This document shows positions 1,026-57,630 of a stretch of 64,000 nt of DNA, in pieces; within the stretch, counting starts at the first letter, position 1, and the number at the start of each line of letters is the position of its first letter. The translations under genes and the position numbers were made by a program. The DNA comes from Candidatus Hydrogenedentota bacterium (lineage in GTDB: Bacteria > Hydrogenedentota > Hydrogenedentia > Hydrogenedentales > JAEUWI01). Under the pieces are notes generated by a model, which saw nothing but the letters and a program-made list of their open reading frames with translations, was not told where the DNA came from and made no database searches. Location: NCBI GenBank assembly GCA_016791475.1, contig JAEUWI010000017.1, forward strand, positions 33,957 to 97,956. The letters run 5' to 3'.

Positions 1026-1049
1026 GGGGGCTGGAAAGCCCCCGCTCCA
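1026..1049. repeat. Singleton REP hairpin (GGGGGCT-GGAA-AGCCCCC followed by GCTCCA) in the intergenic gap between two minus-strand genes
   Basis: Seen in sequence. Same hairpin-plus-tail motif as the REP copies flanking the RAYT gene at 20.4-21.7 kb. Confidence 0.5.
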
Positions 1050-1054
1050 CAGGG

Positions 1055-2780: not shown

Positions 2781-4364
2781 CTATTTCTGCAACGCCGCCA
2801 CCGTCTTTTTCATCGTCTCCAGCAGGCTGGGCGTAAAGGTCTCCACTTTCTTGTAGGCGTTGGTCACCTGTTCAAAGGGCGTGGCGCCTTCGCCTTTGTA
2901 GGAGTTCTGGTCCCGGACAAAGAATGGCTTGTAGGTCGCTTCGTCAACCTTTACGAGCGCCTCTTCCATGCGCGGCATGTACCAGTTGTTCTTGTAGTCG
3001 TGGACCTTCTGCCAATCCGTCGCTTCCTTCACAAAGGCGGCCATGGTCTCGGCGACGACTTTTTTGTCCGCGCCGTCCAGGGCGGCGGTGCGGAAGCGCT
3101 CCAGCGTGGCACGGAAGCGGAGCACATGGCCCAGATCGGTCACGAAGCGCTTGGGGCTGCCGAAGAGGAGGCCTTCCAGATCGCCGGGCTTCAGGTCGGT
3201 GTCGGCCATGGCGGATACGTTCTTCTCGGCCGCTTCGATGATTGCGGGGTCGACCTGATTGACGGCCTCCCAGCCGGCGACAATCGTCTCACCGTGACCG
3301 GGCAACAGCCGCTCCGCAAAGGCCACATAGTCTTCGCGCGTGGGCATGGGTTGTCCGGTTGCGCCGCGCGAGAAGAGGAAGGCATTGGGGAGCTGGAGAC
3401 AGTGGGTCTGGGAATTGCCCAGGGTGCCGCGCACGCCAAGATTTTTCCCGGCCTGATAGGCGAACTCGGTGCCGAAGTTCAGCATGGGGAAGCTGGGCTC
3501 GCCCTCGATTGCGCCGTACTGGTAGTTAAGCACGCGATCCGGCATGCCGATTTCATCGGCGACATTGGGTCCACGGCCGCTTGCCAGGCCCCAGGGTTCG
3601 GGATTGACCTTGGCGAGGAGCTTGATGGCTTCCTGAATCTCGGGGTTTTCGCCCATGGCGAATTCGGCGGTGGCGTAGAAGCGGCAATAGGCCTCCCAGC
3701 CCGCGTGGATCCAATAATAGAGCTCGATATTGGGATTCAGTTCATTGAACATGGTGCGGTGGGAGTTCAGCAGCGAAACGAACTCCACGTTGTCCGAGCC
3801 GGGATAGCCACCCGGATCGCTATCGATGATGAGCACGCCATCAATCTTCTTCAGCGGCGTGAAGATCTTCCGGCGAAATTCGAGCATCTTGCCCATGGCG
3901 ATGGCATCGGCCGGGTTCACGCGCTGGTCGGTAAAGAAGAAGGGGCGCTTCACGAAGGTGTACTTGGCGGCCTCTTCGTTCTTCGCGATTACATTGGGGC
4001 ACAAGGCGATGAGCACGCGCATGTCCTGGGCGTGGGCGAAATCGACCACCTCGGCCATTTTTTCCAGATTCTCCTCGTCGCTCTTTGTGAGCGGATCCGG
4101 CATGGTTTCGAGAACGGGCCAAATCAACACGGTGTTGAAGCCCAGTTTCTTCAGACCGTCCAGATAGCCCTTCCAGTCTTCGAGGGTCCAGGTCCGGGCG
4201 GCATAGGGATGGTTGTAGGACCAGTGCTGGTGCACGTACATGCCAATCATCGGGGGCTTGTTCCAGGATGATGTCTTTTCTTCCGCGCACGCGCCCGGGG
4301 CCAGGGTCCCGGCCAGACACGCCGCCACGAGGGCAAATGTCGCCACCAGTTTTTTCTTCATCAT
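2781..4364 (-). CDS. Secreted glycoside hydrolase family protein (paralog B), translationally coupled to the upstream ABC permease
   Basis: The real start is ATGATGAAGAAAAAA (MMKKKLVATFALVAACLAGTLAPGACA signal peptide) at 4364. Its ATG overlaps the TGA stop of the permease (ATGA), with GGAGG inside the permease 3' end. The track's 692-aa ORF running up to 4859 is a read-through artefact. Confidence 0.8.
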   Translation of the reverse strand: MMKKKLVATFALVAACLAGTLAPGACAEEKTSSWNKPPMIGMYVHQHWSYNHPYAARTWTLEDWKGYLDGLKKLGFNTVLIWPVLETMPDPLTKSDEENLEKMAEVVDFAHAQDMRVLIALCPNVIAKNEEAAKYTFVKRPFFFTDQRVNPADAIAMGKMLEFRRKIFTPLKKIDGVLIIDSDPGGYPGSDNVEFVSLLNSHRTMFNELNPNIELYYWIHAGWEAYCRFYATAEFAMGENPEIQEAIKLLAKVNPEPWGLASGRGPNVADEIGMPDRVLNYQYGAIEGEPSFPMLNFGTEFAYQAGKNLGVRGTLGNSQTHCLQLPNAFLFSRGATGQPMPTREDYVAFAERLLPGHGETIVAGWEAVNQVDPAIIEAAEKNVSAMADTDLKPGDLEGLLFGSPKRFVTDLGHVLRFRATLERFRTAALDGADKKVVAETMAAFVKEATDWQKVHDYKNNWYMPRMEEALVKVDEATYKPFFVRDQNSYKGEGATPFEQVTNAYKKVETFTPSLLETMKKTVAALQK

Positions 4365-20388: not shown

Positions 20389-20397
20389 GCGCGTTAT

Positions 20398-20788
20398 GGA
20401 GGGGGGCCTTTCCAGGCCCACATCTAAACTACCAACGTGAACTTCGGTATTGCAGACGCCCGCGACTCCCGTGTAAAACTCAAAATGGGGAGCTGGAAAG
20501 CTCCCTCTCCATACTATCAGTCCACAGCGCTATGGAGGGGGGCCTTTCCAGGCCCACATGAGAACCACCAACGCGAACTGCGGTGTGACAGGTGCCCGCG
20601 ACTCCCGTGCAAAACTCAAAATGGGGAGCTGGAAAGCTCCCACTCCATACTATCAGTCCACCGCGCTATGGAGGGGGGCCTTTCCAGGCCCACAGTGGAA
20701 CTGCCAACGTGAACTGCGATCTGGCAGGTGCCCGCGACTCACGTATAGACCAAGAAAATGGGGAGCTGGAAAGCTCCCTCTCCATACT
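20398..20788. repeat. Tandem array of three ~136-bp units (20398, 20534, 20670), each holding two REP hairpins in head-to-head orientation (BIME-like), abutting the 3' end of the RAYT gene
   Basis: Units are ~85% identical. Each contains CTATGGAGGGGGGCCTTTCCAGGCCC (the reverse-orientation REP) and GGGGAGCTGGAAAGCTCCCTCTCCATACT (the forward REP). Hairpin stems are GGGAGCT/AGCTCCC with a GGAA loop. The small ORFs here are rejected. Confidence 0.8.
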
Positions 20789-20795
20789 CTCGCTA

Positions 20796-21491
20796 TTAAT
20801 TGTCTTTTTCGAGGTAGATAAACTCCCCCGGTTTTAGTCCAGCTCTATTCGGATTCTCCTTGATATATCCGAAGTAGTATTCGAAGTGGTGATCGCTCCT
20901 TACCAGCCGGTCCCAATAGTCCTCCTGCCAGAGGGCGCCCTTCCGGTTCATACGTTTGTTGATTTCGCGCGCCGTGAAGCCCTTCCACGATTGAAGAATC
21001 GCTCGCAACTTATACTCGCCCAAGGGTCGAAAGAGCACGTGCACATGGTTTGGCATCACCACAAAAGATGCAACATCACAACGCTCGCCATCAAAATGAC
21101 GCAATGCACCCGCCACGATTTCCGCATTGCTTGAATCTCGCAGAAGGCACGAGCCCATTCCCTTGTCCAGCCAGCCGTCGATGCGCTCCATGAAGATCCC
21201 ATAGTATTCGCGCTCGGTAGCAACACCCCAGGGGCGCGGATTGTGTTTCAACCACGCATCTTTTTCTTGCCGCCACTGCCGAAGCAGCGCAGCCGGCAAG
21301 GAATCGCCCAATCGCCATGTTACGAAGCACCAGACATCTCCCTGCTGCCAGTGAGGGAGCCGGTTGTGCTTGATATCGATTTCGCCGCCTCGCTGAAAGA
21401 AGGATGGGGAACAATCGTCTGGCTCCGTGGAGGGGAGTTGCTTCGCGAGCGGATTTTCTATTTCATGGCCTTCAGCCTCGCCGTACGTCAT
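20796..21491 (-). mobile_element. REP-associated tyrosine transposase (RAYT; IS200/IS605-like HuH Y1 transposase)
   Basis: HuH motif VVMPNHVHVLF; RLPHW motif; C-terminal LWQEDYWDRLVRSDHHFEYYFGYIKENP, which compares with the E. coli RAYT segment WQRSYYDHVIRNE...IWDNP. AAGAGGG RBS. Flanked on both sides by REP hairpins. Confidence 0.8.
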
Positions 21492-21513
21492 GCTTATGCC
21501 CTCTTAATTCGGG

Positions 21514-21670
21514 GGCTGGAAAGCCCCCGCTCCATACCTCACATGCCCCGCTCCGACAATCTTATACACCAACGTCGTAACACCCTTGGGACTTCGGGGG
21601 CTGGAAAGCCCCCGCTCCATATCTCTCATGCCCTGAACCAGGACTGGGGAATCCCCGCTCCATACTTGCA
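21514..21670. repeat. REP copies on the 5' side of the RAYT gene: two GGGGGCTGGAAAGCCCCCGCTCCATA at 21516 and 21598, plus a degenerate third
   Basis: Seen in sequence. Same orientation as the forward REPs of the array at 20398-20788. Confidence 0.7.
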
Positions 21671-23617: not shown

Positions 23618-24024
23618 GCTCTCCTCACGATTACAGTCGAATTACGAACCGGGATCTTGTAACACGATAGCGGCACAAAGCAACCGAACTGCCGTGCTTC
23701 GGTCCGGCTGCCGAGATTGAGAGCGCTATATCTTAAAGGGCCTCGGACATGTCTGAGGCAGAGTGCGCCTCGGTCGACAGCGCCCAACAGGAGGTCCAGT
23801 GCCACTACATCGTAATCGAAGTCATTCCCACGAAAGTGGGAATCCAGAAAGCGGCGAAGTACACGTCGCAAGTTCTCGCCATCCCCACTTTCATAAGGAT
23901 GACACCCCCCAGATTGCTTCACTAATTCACTGTGCCCTTTGAACATTAAGATGGGCGTTATCTCAGGCAGGAATGACTAAGCCCCTTTGGTGTTGCCTCT
24001 CTTGGGGGCGCATGTTCAATCGCT

Positions 24025-51923: not shown

Positions 51924-54308
51924 TCACCCCATGGCCGGATCGGATATCGACCATTCCCCGGTCTCCACCCGCCCCGCAAATCTTAACGCGGTCTCCCCGG
52001 CTCGCGCCGAAAGATCGTACCACTGCTTTCCGGCGTTGGTCTCGATGGAAATCGTCTGCTTCTGCCCTGGCTTCAGGGAAACGGGCTGAAGTCGATCCCC
52101 GTAGGATTCGTCGGCCAGCGCCACTTCGATGGGCTGTTCAGTCAGGTTGACGAGGGCGAGTGAAAGGCTCGCCCCGTCACTTCGAATTTCAGCGTTGAAC
52201 ACGGGCGCTCCCGCGCTCTTAAGTGCGCGCATGAAGCCGTTGGGTCCGTCGATTCGTACATCGCATTCACCCGCGACCGGAAGCGTGTCTTCTATCGCAT
52301 CACCCGGCACAACCGCATAGGACCGGCAGATCATTTCCTTGCCATACACGTATGCATTGAAGGCGCCGCCCGCCGCCCGTTCCTGGTTGCGCGCGTTGCC
52401 CGCTTCGAGGCGAATCGTCACGCCGTCCTTCGCGGGCTGGAAATTCGCCTCCAGCTCATAGGGCAAGGGACAAGACGGTCGCCCGCCGCGTTCCTGGAAA
52501 GCCGCCACCTCAAAGGTCTCGACCTCGCCCGGTTTCAACGGTGCGGCGGCCTTCGGGGCTTCGGTAAAGCTGGCCTTGTGAATACGCTCCACATAGGCGT
52601 CCCGGTCGAGGTATTCCGGCAACGGGTACTCTTCTCCGTTCCAGGGTTTAAAAGCGGAGGTGAGATCGCCGCAGACCGTACGACGCCAGGGGCTGATATT
52701 GGTCTCTTTCACGGGTGTGCCTTTGCCCGCGAGCCATTGCTCAAGGAACATGAGGATGGACGTGTGGTCGCTGACTTGCGAGTTCACACAACCACCCCGA
52801 GTCCACGGGGACGCGATAACCAGCGGACAGCGATAACCCAGACCGATGGAATGATCGCGCTCGTGCGCGTCGGAAACATCGAGGGCGGTGTCGAGCCCTT
52901 CGGAGCACTTGCCCGTTTCGGGGCGCCCTGGATGGGGCGCCACAAAGGGAGGAAGATGATCGAAGAGCCCATCGTTCTCGTCGTAGCACAGAATAAAGAC
53001 GGTCTTCTTCCACACTTCGGGATCGCGCGTGAGGATGTTGAGCACTTCGCTCAAGTACCACGCGCCAAACCAGGCGGAGCCGGGGTGATCGGAAAAGCGC
53101 TCGGGCGCGACGAGCCAGGAAACCGCCGGAAGCGTGCCGCCGTCGACGTCCTTGCGGAATTGGTGGAGCACATCGCCTTTGGGCACTTGGATCGTGCGGG
53201 CCTGGCCTTCGTCATCGTAGTGGTGCTCTACGAGCGTGCGATAATCGGGATCGCCCTCGTTCGTGCAGAAGGCTTTCTCGTGGAGCGCCTTTGCTTTGGC
53301 GTCCAGGCTGTTCCAGCCCGCGTCCGTGTACTCGGTCAATTCCTTTCGGGCACTCTCAAGAATCTGCTCCCCTCGCGCGCGATCTTTTGCGAGCTTTGCC
53401 GATGCCTCGGCGGACAGGGTACCGCTGGCCAGCGCTTCGGACGCTTCTTTCAGTTTCACTCCGAGGATTTCGATGAGCTTCGGAAGGTGGGCCCTGCGCT
53501 GCTTTGAATAACGAACGCGAAACTGGCTGAACCACTCGATGGGGTTGTCGGTGAAATTGGAAAGCCACGCGTCCTCTTCGCCGACGAGCCCGGTATCCAG
53601 CGATATCTCGTTCTGGTAAATCTTCCACGAGACTCCCGCGTCTTCCAGGCGCTCCGGGTAGGTGGTCCAGGCCGCTTCGGCATCGTAGTCCGTGTCGCCG
53701 TTCTGCACCCGCGCGGGATGGGCCGCATCCTCGCGAATCGTGCCGCTCCAGAGGTGCAGCCGGTTTGGCGTTGTGCCCGTCAGCGAAGAGCAGAAGGCGT
53801 GGTCAAACACCGTGAATGCATCGGCCAGGGCATAGTAGAAGGGAATGTCCTCCCGTGTAAAAAAGCCCATGGTCATGGGGAAGCCGTCGTCGCGCCGCTT
53901 GGCCGGAAGCCATTGATCGTAGCGGCCGCCATTGCGCGCATCCACTTGATCCTGCCAGGAGTGGGGCGTGCCGCCCATCCAGGTGACCTTCGAGCCCTCC
54001 ATGTCCATGCGAAACGGCGGGATGATCGTGCCGTCGGTGTCCGGCTGAAACCAGACCGGCATCCCATTGGGCTGGCGATGCGCTCGTGGATCGCGATAGC
54101 CCCGCACGCCGCGCAGCGATCCGTAGGCGTGATCGAAGGAGCGGTTCTCCTGCATGAGGATCACCACGTGCTCCGCGTCGTGAAAGGTCGATCCGGGCGC
54201 GGGGTTGATCGCCGCCGCAGCAGCAATGGCCTCGGGCATGCCGCTCCACACCACGGAGGCCGAACCCAGGGCGGCGGCGGCCTTAAGAAATTCACGTCGA
54301 GATTGCAT
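51924..54308 (-). CDS. Tat-exported phospholipase C (non-haemolytic PlcN-type phosphoesterase family)
   Basis: MQSRREFLKAAAALG Tat signal, followed by EHVVILMQENRSFDHAYG, the family's conserved N-terminal motif. Confidence 0.9.
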   Translation of the reverse strand: MQSRREFLKAAAALGSASVVWSGMPEAIAAAAAINPAPGSTFHDAEHVVILMQENRSFDHAYGSLRGVRGYRDPRAHRQPNGMPVWFQPDTDGTIIPPFRMDMEGSKVTWMGGTPHSWQDQVDARNGGRYDQWLPAKRRDDGFPMTMGFFTREDIPFYYALADAFTVFDHAFCSSLTGTTPNRLHLWSGTIREDAAHPARVQNGDTDYDAEAAWTTYPERLEDAGVSWKIYQNEISLDTGLVGEEDAWLSNFTDNPIEWFSQFRVRYSKQRRAHLPKLIEILGVKLKEASEALASGTLSAEASAKLAKDRARGEQILESARKELTEYTDAGWNSLDAKAKALHEKAFCTNEGDPDYRTLVEHHYDDEGQARTIQVPKGDVLHQFRKDVDGGTLPAVSWLVAPERFSDHPGSAWFGAWYLSEVLNILTRDPEVWKKTVFILCYDENDGLFDHLPPFVAPHPGRPETGKCSEGLDTALDVSDAHERDHSIGLGYRCPLVIASPWTRGGCVNSQVSDHTSILMFLEQWLAGKGTPVKETNISPWRRTVCGDLTSAFKPWNGEEYPLPEYLDRDAYVERIHKASFTEAPKAAAPLKPGEVETFEVAAFQERGGRPSCPLPYELEANFQPAKDGVTIRLEAGNARNQERAAGGAFNAYVYGKEMICRSYAVVPGDAIEDTLPVAGECDVRIDGPNGFMRALKSAGAPVFNAEIRSDGASLSLALVNLTEQPIEVALADESYGDRLQPVSLKPGQKQTISIETNAGKQWYDLSARAGETALRFAGRVETGEWSISDPAMG

Positions 54309-54568
54309 GGTTCACCTGTCGTTGCGCGGCACCCGCGCAGAAGGTTTGAATCGGTAAGCCCCGAAAGCAGGTCGTGACTGAGGACGGGGCGATGTGTGTG
54401 CCGCGCAGATTCTACGACCTGAGGATTAATTGATCAAGGCGAGTCGCGTCAATTTTCTGTTAGCACGCGCATATGACTCTTGCCACGAATGTATGCGGCC
54501 GCAAACTAAACAGCGTATGAACAGGCAAGTTTTGCTAAATCCACTACTTCGCCTGGACTAGAATTGTT

Positions 54569-55130
54569 ATCGGGAGGGCATCAGAAACAGCCTCGTTATC
54601 TACGTCCTGCTTCGCATACCAGCGTGGGTTGGGCGTCCCGCCTGACCATCGTGCCCCAATCATCGCCTGGCAATAAGCACGTACGGCATGGTTCCCGTCC
54701 ACGTCATTACACCACTCAAGCGTAATATTCAGACCGAGGCTATGGGGTCAGGCGGGACGCCTAACCCACGTTGGCCTGCCCCCAATTTTCCAGTGGTTTC
54801 TTCAAGCACAACACACTTGGGGTATCAGAATTGCACAATGCGCCGCACGCCGCGTACGCCATCGGGAGGACATAAGAAACAGACCGGTTATTTTAGTCAT
54901 GTTTCGCACACCAACGTGGGTTGGGCGTCCCGCCTGACCATCGCGTCCCAAACATTGCCTGGCTGTTCGCACGTGCGGCATATCCCTCGAAAAAACATCA
55001 TCGCAGTACTCAATCGTAATAGGCAATGTGGTCAGGCGGGACGCCTAACCCACGTTGGCGTGCTCCAAAATTACCAGTGCAACCGCCAAGCGTGAGGGGC
55101 GATACGTGGCAGAATTGCAAAACGTGCCGA
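54569..55130. repeat. Tandem duplication of a ~292-bp unit (units begin at 54569 and 54861). Each unit contains a 27-29-bp inverted repeat whose arms lie ~95 bp apart: CCARCGTGGGTTGGGCGTCCCGCCTGACC...GGTCAGGCGGGACGCCTAACCCACGTTGG
   Basis: Units are ~75% identical overall, but the inverted-repeat arms are almost perfectly conserved. The arm mismatches are G:T (G.U-compatible). Unit 1 carries an extra A>G change that keeps wobble pairing. Confidence 0.8.
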
Positions 55131-55177
55131 ACTAGCGGTAGCGTCGATTAATTCAGACACGAGACGGAGCTAACGGA

Positions 55178-55606
55178 TTAATCTGACTCTGAAAGTTCCG
55201 CACCGGCCCATTCGAGCGCCTGCCGACGATCCAGGAACAGGCGCACGTGAACGGCCTTGCCCTTGCGAAAGGTGTAGACATCGGCGATCCGCCCTTCCCG
55301 CCATTCCGTTTCGCTTTTCAGACGCACCCGCACGTGGACAAATACAACAATCTTGTCCCCTGCGACGATGAACCGCTCCGGCTCGCAGCGTCCCTCGGCC
55401 CAGGTCCCCCGCGCCTGCGTTGCGTGCGCCTCTATCGCGGCGCGTCCCGTATACGTCCCGCCGCCCGGAGACTCCGCAAACTCGATCCACTCGATGTTCT
55501 CGTCGAAGTCTTTGACGAAGGAAGGGATATCGCCCCGGTTGAGGGCCGTGTAGGCTTCTTTCAGGGCTGCGGTCTCGGTGGTGAGAGATGGTGTCAAGCT
55601 GCTCAT
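55178..55606 (-). CDS. SnoaL-like / NTF2-fold (ketosteroid-isomerase-like) small protein
   Basis: 142-aa ORF MSSLTPSLTTETAALKEAYTALNRGD...; fold-level call only. Confidence 0.55.
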   Translation of the reverse strand: MSSLTPSLTTETAALKEAYTALNRGDIPSFVKDFDENIEWIEFAESPGGGTYTGRAAIEAHATQARGTWAEGRCEPERFIVAGDKIVVFVHVRVRLKSETEWREGRIADVYTFRKGKAVHVRLFLDRRQALEWAGAELSESD

Positions 55607-55639
55607 GTTTCCAGCCCTTTGTTTGTGTTTTTCATCTCG

Positions 55640-55765
55640 ACTTATCTGTGTTTATCTGAGTCCATCTGTGGGAAAAGGTCGCCTGCTTCCTGCAGGCAGT
55701 CGAAGGCACGTCGAGAATAGTGGGCGATAAGTTTCCCACAGATGGACTCAGATAAACACAGATAA
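55640..55765. repeat. Perfect 35-bp inverted repeat (CTTATCTGTGTTTATCTGAGTCCATCTGTGGGAAA ... TTTCCCACAGATGGACTCAGATAAACACAGATAAG) enclosing a 56-nt loop with its own small hairpin
   Basis: Seen in sequence. Lies ~120 bp downstream of the 3' end of the tmRNA gene. Confidence 0.8.
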
Positions 55766-55883
55766 GAAAACCGGTGTTCGAACCGGATGAAGCAATTCAT
55801 TTGGTTCATACTACGCCGTCAGCGCACCTTGAATGCAAAAAGCCCGCCGACCATTTGGCCAGCGGACTGCGGGTATTCTCTAA

Positions 55884-56241
55884 TGGTGGAGGCGGCGGGA
55901 ATCGAACCCGCGTCCGAAAGTGTGTCCACGAAGGCGTCTACGTGCATAGCCCGTCTTTTAAGATTCGCCACCCGGGATCGCGTGAGGCTCGCTATCCAGG
56001 GCCGCTAGGGGGAAACCTACTCTATCGGACGTTCCACCGACGTTCCGACGCGAGACCCGCTGTCGTGCGTCTTAGCCCCTTAGCAGGTGGTCAAGGGTAA
56101 GACGAGGCGGCAATTAAGCAGCCATTGCGAAATCGTGTTGATCGTTCGCAGTTAATTGGGTTCCGGTTTTTTACGAGGCCACCGGAGTCCTCGGCACGCA
56201 ACCAACGTTTCATCCACCCCCGTCGAGACCATGTCGCCCCC
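55884..56241 (-). ncRNA. ssrA: tmRNA (ssrA), ~358 nt
   Basis: Minus-strand RNA. The 5' end GGGGGCGACAUGGUCUCGACGGGGG and the 3' end GGACGCGGGUUCGAUUCCCGCCGCCUCCACCA form a tRNA-like acceptor stem, T-arm and CCA. Tag reading frame GCG AAC GAT CAA CAC GAT TTC GCA ATG GCT GCT TAA gives ANDQHDFAMAA. Confidence 0.85.
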
Positions 56242-56374
56242 ACGAAGTCTGGGTAAACGTTGCGCGGCGTCCTTCTATTTACGCCGTGCATTACTGATTA
56301 TGCCACAGGATATGCGCATTGGTCCAGCGCGCTTGCCGCCGTGGATTTGGATTCTGCATAATGGCCCCACGAGG

Positions 56375-56450
56375 TTGCAGGGACGACAGGGACATCAGCG
56401 ACGGCAGGCTTTTGCATTCGTCGCTGCCGTCCCTGATGTCCCTGTAATTT
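56375..56450. promoter_or_regulatory. Imperfect 21-bp inverted repeat (CAGGGACATCAGCGACGGCAG ... CTGCCGTCCCTGATGTCCCTG) in the divergent ssrA/recA promoter region, upstream of a TTGACA (56489-56494) -35 box
   Basis: Seen in sequence. Sits ~110 bp upstream of the recA start and ~130 bp upstream of the tmRNA 5' end. Confidence 0.3.
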
Positions 56451-56562
56451 GGCAAAATTTACCAAGAAATTTTTCTGAAAACTTTTACTTGACATCCTTT
56501 CAGTATTCTGGCAAGATACGCGCATGGTGAATGTTTATTCAGTGCAACTGGAGGAAAGACGA

Positions 56563-57630
56563 ATGGCTGCCAAACCAACCGCGGACACGGAAAAGGTCAA
56601 AGCGCTCGATATCGCGCTGGCCCAACTTGAGAAACAATTTGGCCGGGGGACCCTGGTCCGCCTGGGCGACGACAGCATGAGCCAGAAGGTGGAGGCGATT
56701 TCCACCGGGGCGCTGACCCTGGATCTGGCCACGGGCATTGGCGGTCTGCCCGTGGGGCGTGTGGTGGAGATTTTCGGCCCGGAATCCTCCGGTAAGACGA
56801 CCCTGGCCCTCCATGTGGTGGCCAATTCCCAGCGCAACGGCGGCATTGCCTGCTTTATTGACGCGGAACACGCCCTGGATCCCGGTTTTGCCGCGAAGAT
56901 TGGCGTGGACATCGACAACCTCCTCGTGTCGCAGCCGGATACGGCGGAGCAGGCGCTGGAGATCTGCGAGAGCCTGGTCCGCAGCAATGCGGTGAACGTG
57001 ATCGTCATCGACTCGGTGGCGGCCCTCGTTCCCAAGGCGGAAGTGGAAGGCGACATGGGCGACAGCCACATGGGCCTTCAGGCGCGGCTTATGTCTCAGG
57101 CCTTGCGCAAGCTCACGGCCATCATCAGCCGCTCGAACACGCTGGTGATTTTCATCAACCAGATCCGCGACAAGATTGGTGTCATGTTCGGCAGCCCGGA
57201 AACGACCACGGGCGGTCGCGCGCTGAAATTCTACTCCAGCATCCGCCTGGACATCCGGCGCATTGCGGCCATCAAGGAAAAAGAGGAGAATGTGGGGAAC
57301 CGGGTCAAGGTGAAGGTGGTGAAAAACAAGCTCGCGGCCCCCTTCCGCGATGCCGAGTTCGAAATTCTCTTCAATGAAGGTATTTCCAAGGAAGGCAACA
57401 TCCTGGATCTGGCGGTGGACGAAAAGCTCATCCGCAAGAGTGGCGCGTGGTTCTCGCTGAACGGCGAGAATCTGGGCCAGGGCCGGGAAGCCACGCGCCA
57501 GTACCTGAAAGACAATCCGGCCGTCACCGAGCAGTTGCGCGAGCAGATTATTCAGGCCCGCGGCTTGCAATGGGGCGGTGCCGCGCCCGAGGTTGAAGAG
57601 GTAGTACGGGAAGCGAGTGCAGGCGACTGA
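56563..57630 (+). CDS. recA: Recombinase RecA
   Basis: Start [16 protein letters not shown] with GGAGG RBS. Walker [10 protein letters not shown] and canonical RecA motifs throughout. Confidence 0.95.

Follow-up and report, generated by a model that had tools for sequence, protein, structure and literature searches.

In REPs of the canonical kind the hairpin has GT[AG]G at its 5′ base, and each tnpA-REP has a REP family of its own (PMC6006769). The TnpA-REP protein binds the hairpin together with the GTAG head on single-stranded DNA, by means of HUH and Y115 (PMC3479197). In Pseudomonas, tandem REPIN clusters are known that consist of two units, each made up of a flank f1, a REPIN and a flank f2 (PMC3116915). 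The element analysed here lies at positions 54569 to 55130 of a 64-kb stretch of a Candidatus Hydrogenedentota genome (the window), and it very probably consists of four REPs arranged as two tandem REPINs of the type copied by a RAYT (REP-associated HUH/Y1 tyrosine transposase). REPINs are small non-autonomous mobile elements already known from bacteria, and the evidence rules against a new structured RNA, the reading put forward in the initial annotation. The arrangement of two tandem REPINs with co-duplicated flanks is the one already known from Pseudomonas. The features of the element are the following, with the strand given where one applies.

54569..54860, no strand: tandem unit 1, consisting of 5′ flank, REPIN 1 and 3′ flank (direct-repeat families D1-D3, alignment A1)
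54861..55132 (about; 55130 is also given as the end), no strand: tandem unit 2, consisting of 5′ flank, REPIN 2 and 3′ flank (direct repeats, alignment)
54614..54779, no strand: REPIN 1, an inverted REP doublet with tails inward and GTGG heads outward, 98-nt spacer (inverted repeat I5)
54906..55063, no strand: REPIN 2, an inverted REP doublet, 88-nt spacer (inverted repeat I3)
54617..54650, top strand (+): REP copy 1, left arm of unit 1 (covariance model R1, 44.8 bits, E = 4.6e-10)
54743..54776, opposite strand (-): REP copy 2, right arm of unit 1 (R1, 50.4 bits, E = 1.5e-11)
54909..54942, + strand: REP copy 3, left arm of unit 2 (R1, 50.2 bits, E = 1.7e-11)
55027..55060, - strand: REP copy 4, right arm of unit 2 (R1, 52.1 bits, E = 5.3e-12)

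A repeat search placed the direct repeats at a period of 292/284 bp (54569-54689 against 54861-54981, 54737-54795 against 55021-55079, and 54826-54848 against 55110-55132). The inverted arms of unit 1 (54614-54647 and 54746-54779) are 34 nt long and 88% complementary around their 98-nt spacer, and those of unit 2 (54906-54940 and 55029-55063) are 35 nt long and 94% complementary around 88 nt. The 29-mer of the arm occurs four times in the window at two mismatches or fewer, where none is expected (100 shuffles). Thus the tandem repeat with inverted arms that had been noticed earlier is real and non-random, with arms of 29-35 nt by recount; the identity of its two units, put then at about 75%, is 71% as computed, and the arms are indeed nearly identical between the units (94% and 97%), as compared with 63% in the loop, 78% in the 5′ flank and 56% in the 3′ flank. 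The arms are conserved far better than the rest of the unit (65/68 versus 144/227 identical positions, Fisher p = 1.5e-8). None of the ORFs inside the element (135, 74, 53 and 52 aa) has a Pfam match, which agrees with the earlier remark that no credible ORF is present. Furthermore, a search for homologues of the loops and flanks in all fetched loci and in the remaining window returned nothing below E = 0.03. The heptamer AGAATTG recurs in register at 54560, 54827 and 55111; it lies about 50 nt outside the arms, matches the register of the tandem duplication and does not have the status of a target-site duplication (TSD).

Every arm represents a single REP: an imperfect stem-loop of 8-9 bp with a 3-nt loop, directly preceded on its 5′ side by a GT[G/A]G head. 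The consensus reads GTGG-GTTRGGCG-TCC-CGCCTGAC(C). In copy 1, the GTGG head (54624-54627) is followed by the hairpin GGTTGGGCG-TCC-CGCCTGACC. The 29-mer of copy 2 is identical to copies on contigs of a Hydrogenedentales MAG (loci L003 and L009), and that of copy 3 to positions 992-1020 of locus L002, in the genome OW818658.1. The head is GTGG in all four copies of the window, while in an alignment of 37 REP copies (A3) the head columns 8-11 show an invariant G, an invariant T, G or A, and an invariant G, and the stem begins at column 12. Covariation in this alignment was scored against 500 shuffles and against slid registers. The stem of the small hairpin has eight pairs with about 100% of the cells paired, and compensatory changes are present at four of them (GC>CG, GC>AU, GC>CG and UA/GC/AU) across the 37 copies. 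Its covariation score is 0.357 versus 0.125 in the shuffles, none of which (0/500) reaches 0.357, and it does not exceed 0.075 in the slid registers. On the head-bearing strand the stem contains an invariant T.G pair (columns 14-28) and an R.T pair. At column 15, A and G coexist as a standing polymorphism (20 A, 16 G and 1 C; n = 37), and the partner of this column within the small hairpin is an invariant T. Folded as DNA, the single-REP hairpin has a modest energy of -4.8 to -7.5 kcal/mol (z from -0.07 to -2.3); the support for the hairpin therefore comes from covariation and not from energy, and thermodynamics alone would be insufficient to spot it. In all, the repeats match the short imperfect palindromes (20-40 nt) of the REP type in keeping their stem and in using alternative but complementary residues there in different subfamilies, and both the window cluster and all copies in loci L026-L030 are located between called genes.

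In a search of genome contigs, the exact 21-nt core of the arm was found at 13 loci, six of which are contigs of one Hydrogenedentales MAG (bin.359) and one of which is in OW818658.1. The MAG bin.359 has nine exact-core REP copies, or 11 when variant-stem partner arms are included, mostly as inverted doublets with spacers of about 90-120 nt, and OW818658.1 has one doublet together with a sister subfamily. The exact-core copy number is 1-9 per genome, which is an undercount inherent in exact matching; classical REPs are typically present in hundreds of copies. Within the 64-kb window, the scan with model R1 found four copies of this family (family A), all in this one cluster. Seventeen doublets in total share the head-out orientation, and only the arms are shared between genomes, the spacers being unalignable; the doublets of L002 and L004 are homologous and lie in opposite orientation. 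A metagenome scan in which the nine inner stem-loop bases were left free returned nine loci, which served as an internal negative control. Eight of these matches are singletons in which one to three of the four inner pairs form, and the sole match with an inverted partner had all four; the eight singletons are thus regarded as chance matches on account of their incomplete inner pairing. Moreover, the orthologous spacer between the genes for a SnoaL-like protein and phospholipase C (PLC) in OW818658.1 (L031) is 429 bp long versus 869 bp in the window, and the REP is absent from it; the PLC of OW818658.1 falls in the same 90%-identity cluster as that of the window. This one presence/absence comparison suggests that the doublet may be mobile.

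At locus L001, the motif is found on both sides of an ORF with a match to Pfam Y1_Tnp (E = 6e-7, above the Pfam cutoff); against NCBIfam REP_Tyr_transpos the same protein scores 68.6 bits, below the cutoff of 80. The flanks of four further RAYTs of the L001 clade (90, 71, 65 and 57% identical) were examined. Upstream inverted REP doublets of the same architecture are present at all four, and a full downstream doublet at three, the fourth (L028/L029) having a single copy before the contig end; in all, there are five loci at which a RAYT-type HUH/Y1 gene is flanked on both sides by the REPs. The divergence of the REPs follows that of the RAYTs, with the stems GGCG/CGCC, GGCT/AGCC, GCCT/AGGC and AGCT/AGCT: L001 and L027 have the GGCG-type REP identical to that of the window, and L026, L028/29 and L030 have sister subtypes. 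No family-A RAYT was seen within the 64-kb window, which does contain a paralogue with repeats of its own.

20796..21491, - strand: paralogous RAYT-like Y1/HUH transposase gene, 231 aa, not the cognate enzyme (tblastn E = 2.6e-60)
20395..21664, no strand: REP family B (TATGGAGnGGGnnCTTTCCAGnnCCC) around the window RAYT (sequence and motif scan)

This window RAYT is 45% identical to the RAYT of L001, which is flanked by family-A REPs, and Pfam Y1_Tnp is on record for the protein. It resembles IS200 TnpA (2f4f) and E. coli TnpA-REP (4er8) weakly, the HUH motif and the Tyr being in register, and in the RAYT alignment A5 the motifs PNHVH and Y..NP are invariant and align to H59/H61 and Y115/N119 of 4er8. 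Around this gene the layout recurs with family B, in the form of three inverted doublets in tandem (20395-20786) and three copies that share one strand (21516-21664). Judged from these surroundings, the window RAYT appears to serve family B and not family A.

From these data we propose the following course of events. On single-stranded DNA each REP would fold into its own small hairpin, and a RAYT would recognise the hairpin together with the head, cleave and rejoin the REP, and so copy the inverted doublet to new extragenic sites, presumably leaving no TSD. Catalysis and mobilisation in trans are suggested by homology with E. coli TnpA-REP and the Pseudomonas REPINs. As cognate RAYT one expects an orthologue of the L001/P0001 type, encoded elsewhere in the genome. 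The twofold arrangement probably arose by local tandem duplication of flank, REPIN and flank, which is recurrent in this REP family, and after the duplication the REPs have stayed near the family consensus as loop and flanks decayed.

Other identities of the element have to be weighed against this proposal. A structured ncRNA, in the form of a long hairpin of about 150 nt or a unit of about 290 nt that would be read from the + strand and retained through selection for pairing in the RNA, would account for the arms being far better conserved than the loops and for both strands of the element folding far better than shuffles (z = -8.4 and -7.1), but such z-scores arise from any long inverted repeat. 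On the + strand the arm-to-arm mismatches do place G against T, once in unit 2 and twice in unit 1, as the initial annotation had observed, and they would read as G.U; its further step, that this pattern points to selection for RNA pairing, is not supported, because the position shared by the two units is the A/G polymorphism of the whole REP family at column 15, and only two independent transitions are involved, which would both give G.U on the + strand by chance with a probability of about 0.25. Both flanking genes, moreover, are on the - strand, where these positions read A.C. The covariation that was expected to back the long helix points the other way. Among 15 doublets from other loci, nine have differently compensated stems in their two arms, which breaks the arm-arm helix; the helix has 24 mismatches and 10 G.U in 408 positions, yet the small hairpins retain 271 of 272 pairs. 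The conserved unit is the small hairpin, and the long arm-to-arm helix is not conserved. Loop and flank are not conserved elsewhere, only the arms recur, and the orthologous spacer of the close relative is without the element. An Rfam scan of 53000-57000 with E up to 1 gave only tmRNA as a real match; MIR918, MIR158 and mir-561 were below the gathering score and are generic long-hairpin matches, an artefact of this sort of repeat. We therefore consider a structured ncRNA very unlikely.

A classical MITE, with the arms as terminal inverted repeats (TIRs) of a deleted DDE-type IS moved by cut-and-paste with TSDs, would fit a spacer of some 90 nt framed by inverted arms of some 30 nt, as well as the presence/absence polymorphism between relatives. 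The MITE alternative offered at the outset is right in so far as this is a miniature non-autonomous mobile element, but it is of the REP/REPIN type with a Y1/HUH transposase and not a MITE with TIRs and TSDs. TSDs flanking each unit had been named as the sign of a MITE; at neither hairpin is there an adjoining direct repeat of at least 4 nt, a slack of +/-4 nt at the boundaries included, and a TSD search around the units found none either. In addition, each arm forms a palindrome of its own, headed by GT[AG]G, the gene associated with the repeat in five loci is of the Y1/HUH class and not DDE, and the arm sequences are conserved rather than decaying, so that a MITE in the classical sense is scarcely credible. 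The arms also hold GTTRRRY (GTTGGGC/GTTAGGC) and RYYYAAC (GCCTAAC/GCCCAAC), the core motifs of attC, which brings an integron attC-like site to mind; a match to degenerate 7-nt motifs is, however, weak evidence, their order within each hairpin (GTTRRRY...RYYYAAC) is the reverse of that in attC, and there is neither an adjoining integrase nor a cassette array. With the same sequence flanking RAYT genes at other loci, the attC-like reading is effectively refuted and its probability is negligible.

Whether the REPIN cluster has gained a function for its host is a question of added function and not of identity. The element is located between the stop of the gene for the SnoaL-like protein (55178-55606, - strand) and the start of that for PLC (51924-54308, - strand), and the tmRNA gene (55884-56241, - strand) is 754 bp away, in accordance with the earlier statement that it lies within 1 kb. 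A sigma-70-like promoter is predicted between the element and PLC (54437-54409, - strand), where a stretch conserved with a relative is also found; the element is thus upstream of the likely PLC promoter and not inside it. Of the promoter-proximal position ascribed to it, the adjoining location stands and a place within the promoter does not. The cluster might affect transcription of the gene for the SnoaL-like protein or of PLC. As an exapted element, with highly stable hairpins between genes that run in the same direction, it could act as a terminator or insulator, as a stabiliser of the 3′ end of the SnoaL-like mRNA, or as a protein-binding site shaping PLC expression. Such a role would suit its place, directly downstream of an ORF and ahead of the conserved promoter region of PLC, and documented roles of REPs include mRNA stabilisation, transcription termination and the binding of IHF or gyrase (PMC3733652, PMC6006769). 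Between the two units the REPs agree at 96% of positions, and they match copies from other Hydrogenedentota genomes exactly, as against about 63% for the loop and flanks that were duplicated with them and have since decayed; selection for recognition by the RAYT or gene conversion among REPs, however, explains this conservation equally well. The promoter/terminator scan found no T-tract of the intrinsic-terminator kind at the hairpins, and its counts were not above those in shuffles. PLC and the SnoaL-like protein do not need the element for their function, since the close relative lacks it here. All in all, host exaptation seems to us rather unlikely. We consider it improbable as well that the REPs at this locus are actively maintained, be it through exaptation as an insulator, terminator or RNA-stability element or through RAYT-mediated gene conversion; if they were, the locus would provide evidence, from a deep-branching phylum that does not belong to the Proteobacteria, that REPIN-RAYT systems are maintained as beneficial partners.

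The identification as a REPIN cluster guards against annotating the element as a novel RNA or an island linked to ssrA. It also documents a RAYT-REP system in Candidatus Hydrogenedentota, with at least two REP families and RAYT paralogues, and with REP stems that co-vary with RAYT divergence across the clade; the literature searched contained no mention of RAYTs in this phylum. As an old tandem cluster in which only the REPs are preserved, it could serve studies of how REPIN populations persist.

A close likeness is to the REPINs of Pseudomonas fluorescens SBW25 (Bertels & Rainey 2011, PMC3116915). They too are extragenic inverted REP doublets with a spacer conserved in length and not in sequence (71-110 bp in SBW25 and 88-98 bp here), and they have linked RAYT genes, which are flanked by REPIN clusters. 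The 'ordered clusters' of SBW25, two tandem units of 5′ flank, REPIN and 3′ flank, have exactly the layout of the window. The phylum and the REP sequence differ; in addition, the tandem units of SBW25 are nearly identical, whereas here flanks and loops are 56-78% identical and REPs 94-97%, the copy number seen here is low, and the two REPs of a doublet often have different, internally compensated stems. With the REP/BIME system of E. coli (Messing 2012, PMC3479197; Quentin 2018, PMC6006769) the family shares an imperfect hairpin with a GT[AG]G tetranucleotide at its 5′ base, a conserved non-Watson-Crick position in that hairpin, and REP subtypes that alternate within pairs, as Y and Z do. The placing of the RAYT gene between REP pairs is that of the E. 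coli REPtron, and the HUH motif and catalytic Tyr (Y115) of TnpA-REP align with the window RAYT. However, the RAYTs here measure about 225-231 aa, carry an RLPHW motif at the N-terminus and some 55 inserted residues behind the first strand, are only weakly similar to 4er8 (E = 0.013) and fall below the NCBIfam equivalog cutoff, and the stem here is shorter (8-9 bp) with a 3-nt loop. The GTAG superfamily (Di Nocera 2013, PMC3733652) likewise includes repeats whose head has degenerated to GTGG, namely GTAG-20 of Opitutus terrae in the PVC group, and its stems span 6-9 bp, with short loops and many G.T pairs; its subfamilies use alternative but complementary residues in the stem, and its dimers are repeated in tandem together with flanking DNA; GTAG-20 is likened to the window REP by description and not by sequence, and Hydrogenedentota is absent from the phyla of that study. 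For another comparison, the subterminal imperfect palindromes of the IS200/IS605 elements (IS608, ISDra2) also form hairpins on single-stranded DNA that are recognised, with an adjacent tetranucleotide, by a Y1 HUH transposase, and these elements have neither TSD nor TIR. There the hairpins delimit an autonomous IS, which moves in one piece, whereas here the repeats are dispersed doublets apart from a single-copy-type transposase gene.

The element at 54569-55132 is very probably a tandem cluster of REPINs, i.e. inverted doublets of repetitive extragenic palindromes (REPs), of a GTGG-headed REP family (family A), ordinary in kind and located in a little-studied phylum. Its units, delimited by direct sequence reading and repeat analysis, lie among the following features.

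51924-54308, minus strand: phospholipase C gene (PLC, MBL7646755)
54569-55132: tandem element
54569-54860: tandem unit 1
54614-54647 with 54746-54779: inverted repeat of unit 1, spacer 98 nt
54861-55130/32: tandem unit 2
54906-54940 with 55029-55063: inverted repeat of unit 2, spacer 88 nt
55178-55606, minus strand: SnoaL-like gene
55884-56241, minus strand: tmRNA
from 56524, plus strand: recA (RecA, MBL7646757)

The two units have a period of 292/284 bp by repeat analysis and are 71% identical overall, very unevenly: the arms reach 94% and 97%, the 5' flank 78%, the loop 63% and the 3' flank 56%. The arms are thus more conserved than the rest of the units (65/68 versus 144/227 identical positions, Fisher p = 1.5e-8), and, counting up to two mismatches, the window contains four copies of the 29-nt arm, against 0 expected from 100 dinucleotide-preserving shuffles. 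The initial annotation described tandem units with conserved inverted arms, G opposite T on the plus strand as the arm-arm mismatches and no credible ORF, which agrees with our data, including the lack of any Pfam match among the ORFs inside the element.

The conserved feature is the individual REP and not the long helix, since in 17 doublets the small hairpins are paired at 271 of 272 positions while the arm-arm helix contains 24 mismatches and 10 G.U in 408 positions. In 9 of the 15 non-window doublets the stems differ between the two arms and are compensated within each arm, as with GGCG/CGCC facing GGCT/AGCC; the Y and Z subtypes of REPs in E. coli BIMEs offer a parallel (PMC6006769). The G.U-compatible substitutions had been read as selection for RNA pairing, and this is not supported: the G.U shared by both units is REP column 15, which is polymorphic for A and G throughout the family (20 A, 16 G, 1 C) and has an invariant T as its partner within the small hairpin. 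Together with one extra transition in unit 1, two independent events lie behind the pattern, and the probability of both reading G.U on the plus strand is about 0.25; on the minus strand, the sense strand of both flanking genes, these positions read A.C. The spacers and flanks of the doublets could not be aligned between genomes, and nothing significantly similar to the window loops and flanks was found in the rest of the window or in any locus fetched from other genomes. The doublets of two fetched loci (L002 and L004) share homology and lie in opposite orientations, which is what a unit able to insert in both directions should show.

A gap-free alignment of 37 REP copies gave a head of G, T, G or A, G immediately 5' of an 8-9 bp stem, with a 3-nt loop that is mostly TCC. 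Pair counting in these copies showed that the 8 pairs of the small hairpin are essentially always paired, with two-sided changes in four of them (GC>CG, GC>AU, GC>CG and UA/GC/AU). Covariation scores 0.357, versus 0.125 in shuffles (a score this high in 0/500), and stays at or below 0.075 in slid registers. One pair is an invariant T.G, and another position varies between A-T and G.T as read on the strand with the head; therefore, the hairpin has a strand polarity, which is seen in DNA folds too, where the energies are modest. As a negative control, a metagenome scan with the nine inner bases unspecified returned nine loci. Eight were singletons, taken as chance matches because they have 1-3 of the 4 inner pairs, and the sole locus with an inverted partner has 4/4.

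An exact-match search with the 21-nt arm core, using one genome per species, found 13 loci, none from the source genome: six on contigs of a single Hydrogenedentales MAG (bin.359), one on chromosome OW818658.1, and the remainder in two other Hydrogenedentota MAGs, one Pirellulaceae MAG and three Microcoleus genomes. The Microcoleus matches occupy one orthologous site in three species (L005 1750-1770, L007 5421-5441 and L013 311-331; CTTGTGGGTTAGGCGTCCCGCCTGC), and the Pirellulaceae copy (L010, about 3065-3135) has a doublet-like arrangement. About 2 matches to a 21-mer are expected by chance in the searched collection; either the GTGG/GGCG-TCC-CGCC type is spread over phyla, or these matches arose by chance. 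In a Hydrogenedentales MAG locus (L001), the motif stands on both sides of an ORF that carries VIMPNHVHVL as its HUH signature and matches Pfam Y1_Tnp, and the best NCBIfam match of this ORF is 'REP-associated tyrosine transposase' (RAYT; 68.6 bits, below the curated cutoff of 80). This suggested an identification of the arms as REP sequences and of the hairpins as REPINs. From a collection of homologues of the L001 protein, four (90, 71, 65 and 57% identical) were retrieved together with their flanks. Doublets built in the same way, and likewise inverted, lie upstream of the RAYT in all four, and full ones downstream in three, the fourth (L028/L029) having a single copy before the contig end. 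The 90% identical RAYT (L027) has GGCG-TCC-CGCC REPs as in the window, and the more distant ones have GGCT/AGCC, GCCT/AGGC or AGCT/AGCT stems with unchanged head and loop; therefore, REP divergence tracks RAYT divergence.

The window itself encodes a RAYT-like paralogue of 231 aa, which is 45% identical to the L001 RAYT (tblastn, E = 2.6e-60). When it is aligned with E. coli TnpA-REP, its HUH motif matches H59/H61 and its tyrosine Y115, residues whose roles are described in PMC3479197. It is flanked by another REP family (family B, TATGGAGnGGGnnCTTTCCAGnnCCC), with stems compensated between the subtypes GGGGCC, GGGAGC and GGGGGC.

1031-1051, minus strand: dispersed family-B singleton CTGTGGAGCGGGGGCTTTCCAGCCCCCG, some 20 kb distant from the RAYT gene
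20395-20786: three tandem inverted family-B doublets, period about 136 bp
20796-21491, minus strand: RAYT-like 'transposase' (MBL7646732)
21516-21664: three same-strand family-B copies

By sequence, 20395-21664 forms a complete REPtron, comprising the RAYT-like Y1/HUH gene and family B. This points to at least two RAYT/REP pairs in the genome, and since the window RAYT goes with family B, the family-A enzyme would have to be encoded outside the window. The family-A REP covariance model found no further copy in the window save one marginal match (23958-23992, minus strand, 15.6 bits, E = 0.023, CACCAAAGGGGCTTAGTCATTCCTGCCTGAGATAA) with recognisable head and tail and a non-complementary stem, which may be a decayed REP singlet. 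REP-adjacent tandem duplication is recurrent, as it is also seen in L001, another fetched locus (L030) and window family B; in L001 (2744-2845) the duplicated segment takes in the last ~34 RAYT codons at the 3' end and is 65% identical at the protein level.

The PLC of OW818658.1 (7.9 Mb chromosome) belongs to the same 90%-identity cluster as the window PLC. The SnoaL-PLC spacer there (syntenic locus L031) is 429 bp versus 869 bp in the window and has no match to the REP model, which suggests that the REPIN cluster is either a lineage-specific insertion or was lost in OW818658.1. The gene ends and ~200 bp nearest PLC are alignable, and this stretch holds a predicted -35/-10 at 54437-54409, so that the cluster is positioned upstream of the likely PLC promoter. 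The OW818658.1 spacer (5572-6000 of L031) carries a different inverted repeat of CCGTG sub-repeats (TTCCGTGTCCTTCCGTGGTC ... GACCACGGAGACACGGAGG), similar in style to a perfect 35-nt inverted repeat of the window (55641-55675/55732-55766, spacer 56 nt) between the SnoaL-like gene and tmRNA. The latter is composed of ATCTG[T/A]G sub-repeats, has no second copy in the window or any fetched locus, and might represent a further REPIN-like family or a terminator; an Rfam 'MIR158' match to it (40 bits versus a gathering score of 67) was dismissed as a generic hairpin artefact. From tmRNA to the SnoaL-like gene there are merely 278 bp in the window, whereas OW818658.1 has three extra small genes (L031 3638-5001: a GIY-YIG protein, a 78-aa ORF and a 135-aa ORF); thus it is the relative, rather than the window, that has an ssrA-adjacent insertion. 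In addition, a 22-nt inverted repeat between tmRNA and recA (56386-56407/56424-56445, 95% complementary, spacer 16 nt; GGGACATCAG[C/G]GACGGCAG ... CTGCCGTCCCTGATGTC) is kept at the syntenic position in OW818658.1 and may be a conserved regulatory element or terminator.

The initial annotation had proposed a structured ncRNA or a MITE. The former is unlikely, as small REP hairpins are conserved rather than the long helix, loops and flanks are not common to other genomes, the orthologous spacer lacks REPs and the element has no Rfam match. A MITE of the TIR/TSD type fails on the internal palindromes of the arms, the association with a Y1 transposase and the target-site duplication test, which found none abutting either hairpin. 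An attC-like reading of GTTRRRY/RYYYAAC was also rejected, because motif order and context are wrong. On top of the REPIN identity, a possible host function as terminator, insulator or mRNA stabiliser is hinted at by the selective preservation of the REPs, but OW818658.1 lacks the element and the hairpins are not followed by a T-tract. What is mildly unusual about the REPIN cluster is only how old the duplication is: between units the REPs still share 94-97% identity and all else has decayed.

Canonical REPs carry a 5' GT[AG]G at the hairpin foot, every tnpA-REP is paired with a REP family of its own, and several families are possible per genome (PMC6006769). In vitro, E. coli TnpA-REP binds ssDNA at the imperfect hairpin and the GTAG head and makes its cut close by (PMC3479197). 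We found no paper linking Hydrogenedentota with RAYTs, and the tandem cluster would extend a known class by one new member from this phylum. Bertels and Rainey defined the REPIN as an inverted REP doublet, and their ordered clusters consist of two tandem units, each of flank f1, REPIN and flank f2 (PMC3116915). At the sequence level, the element at 54569-55132 appears to agree with REPs and REPINs in every feature tested.
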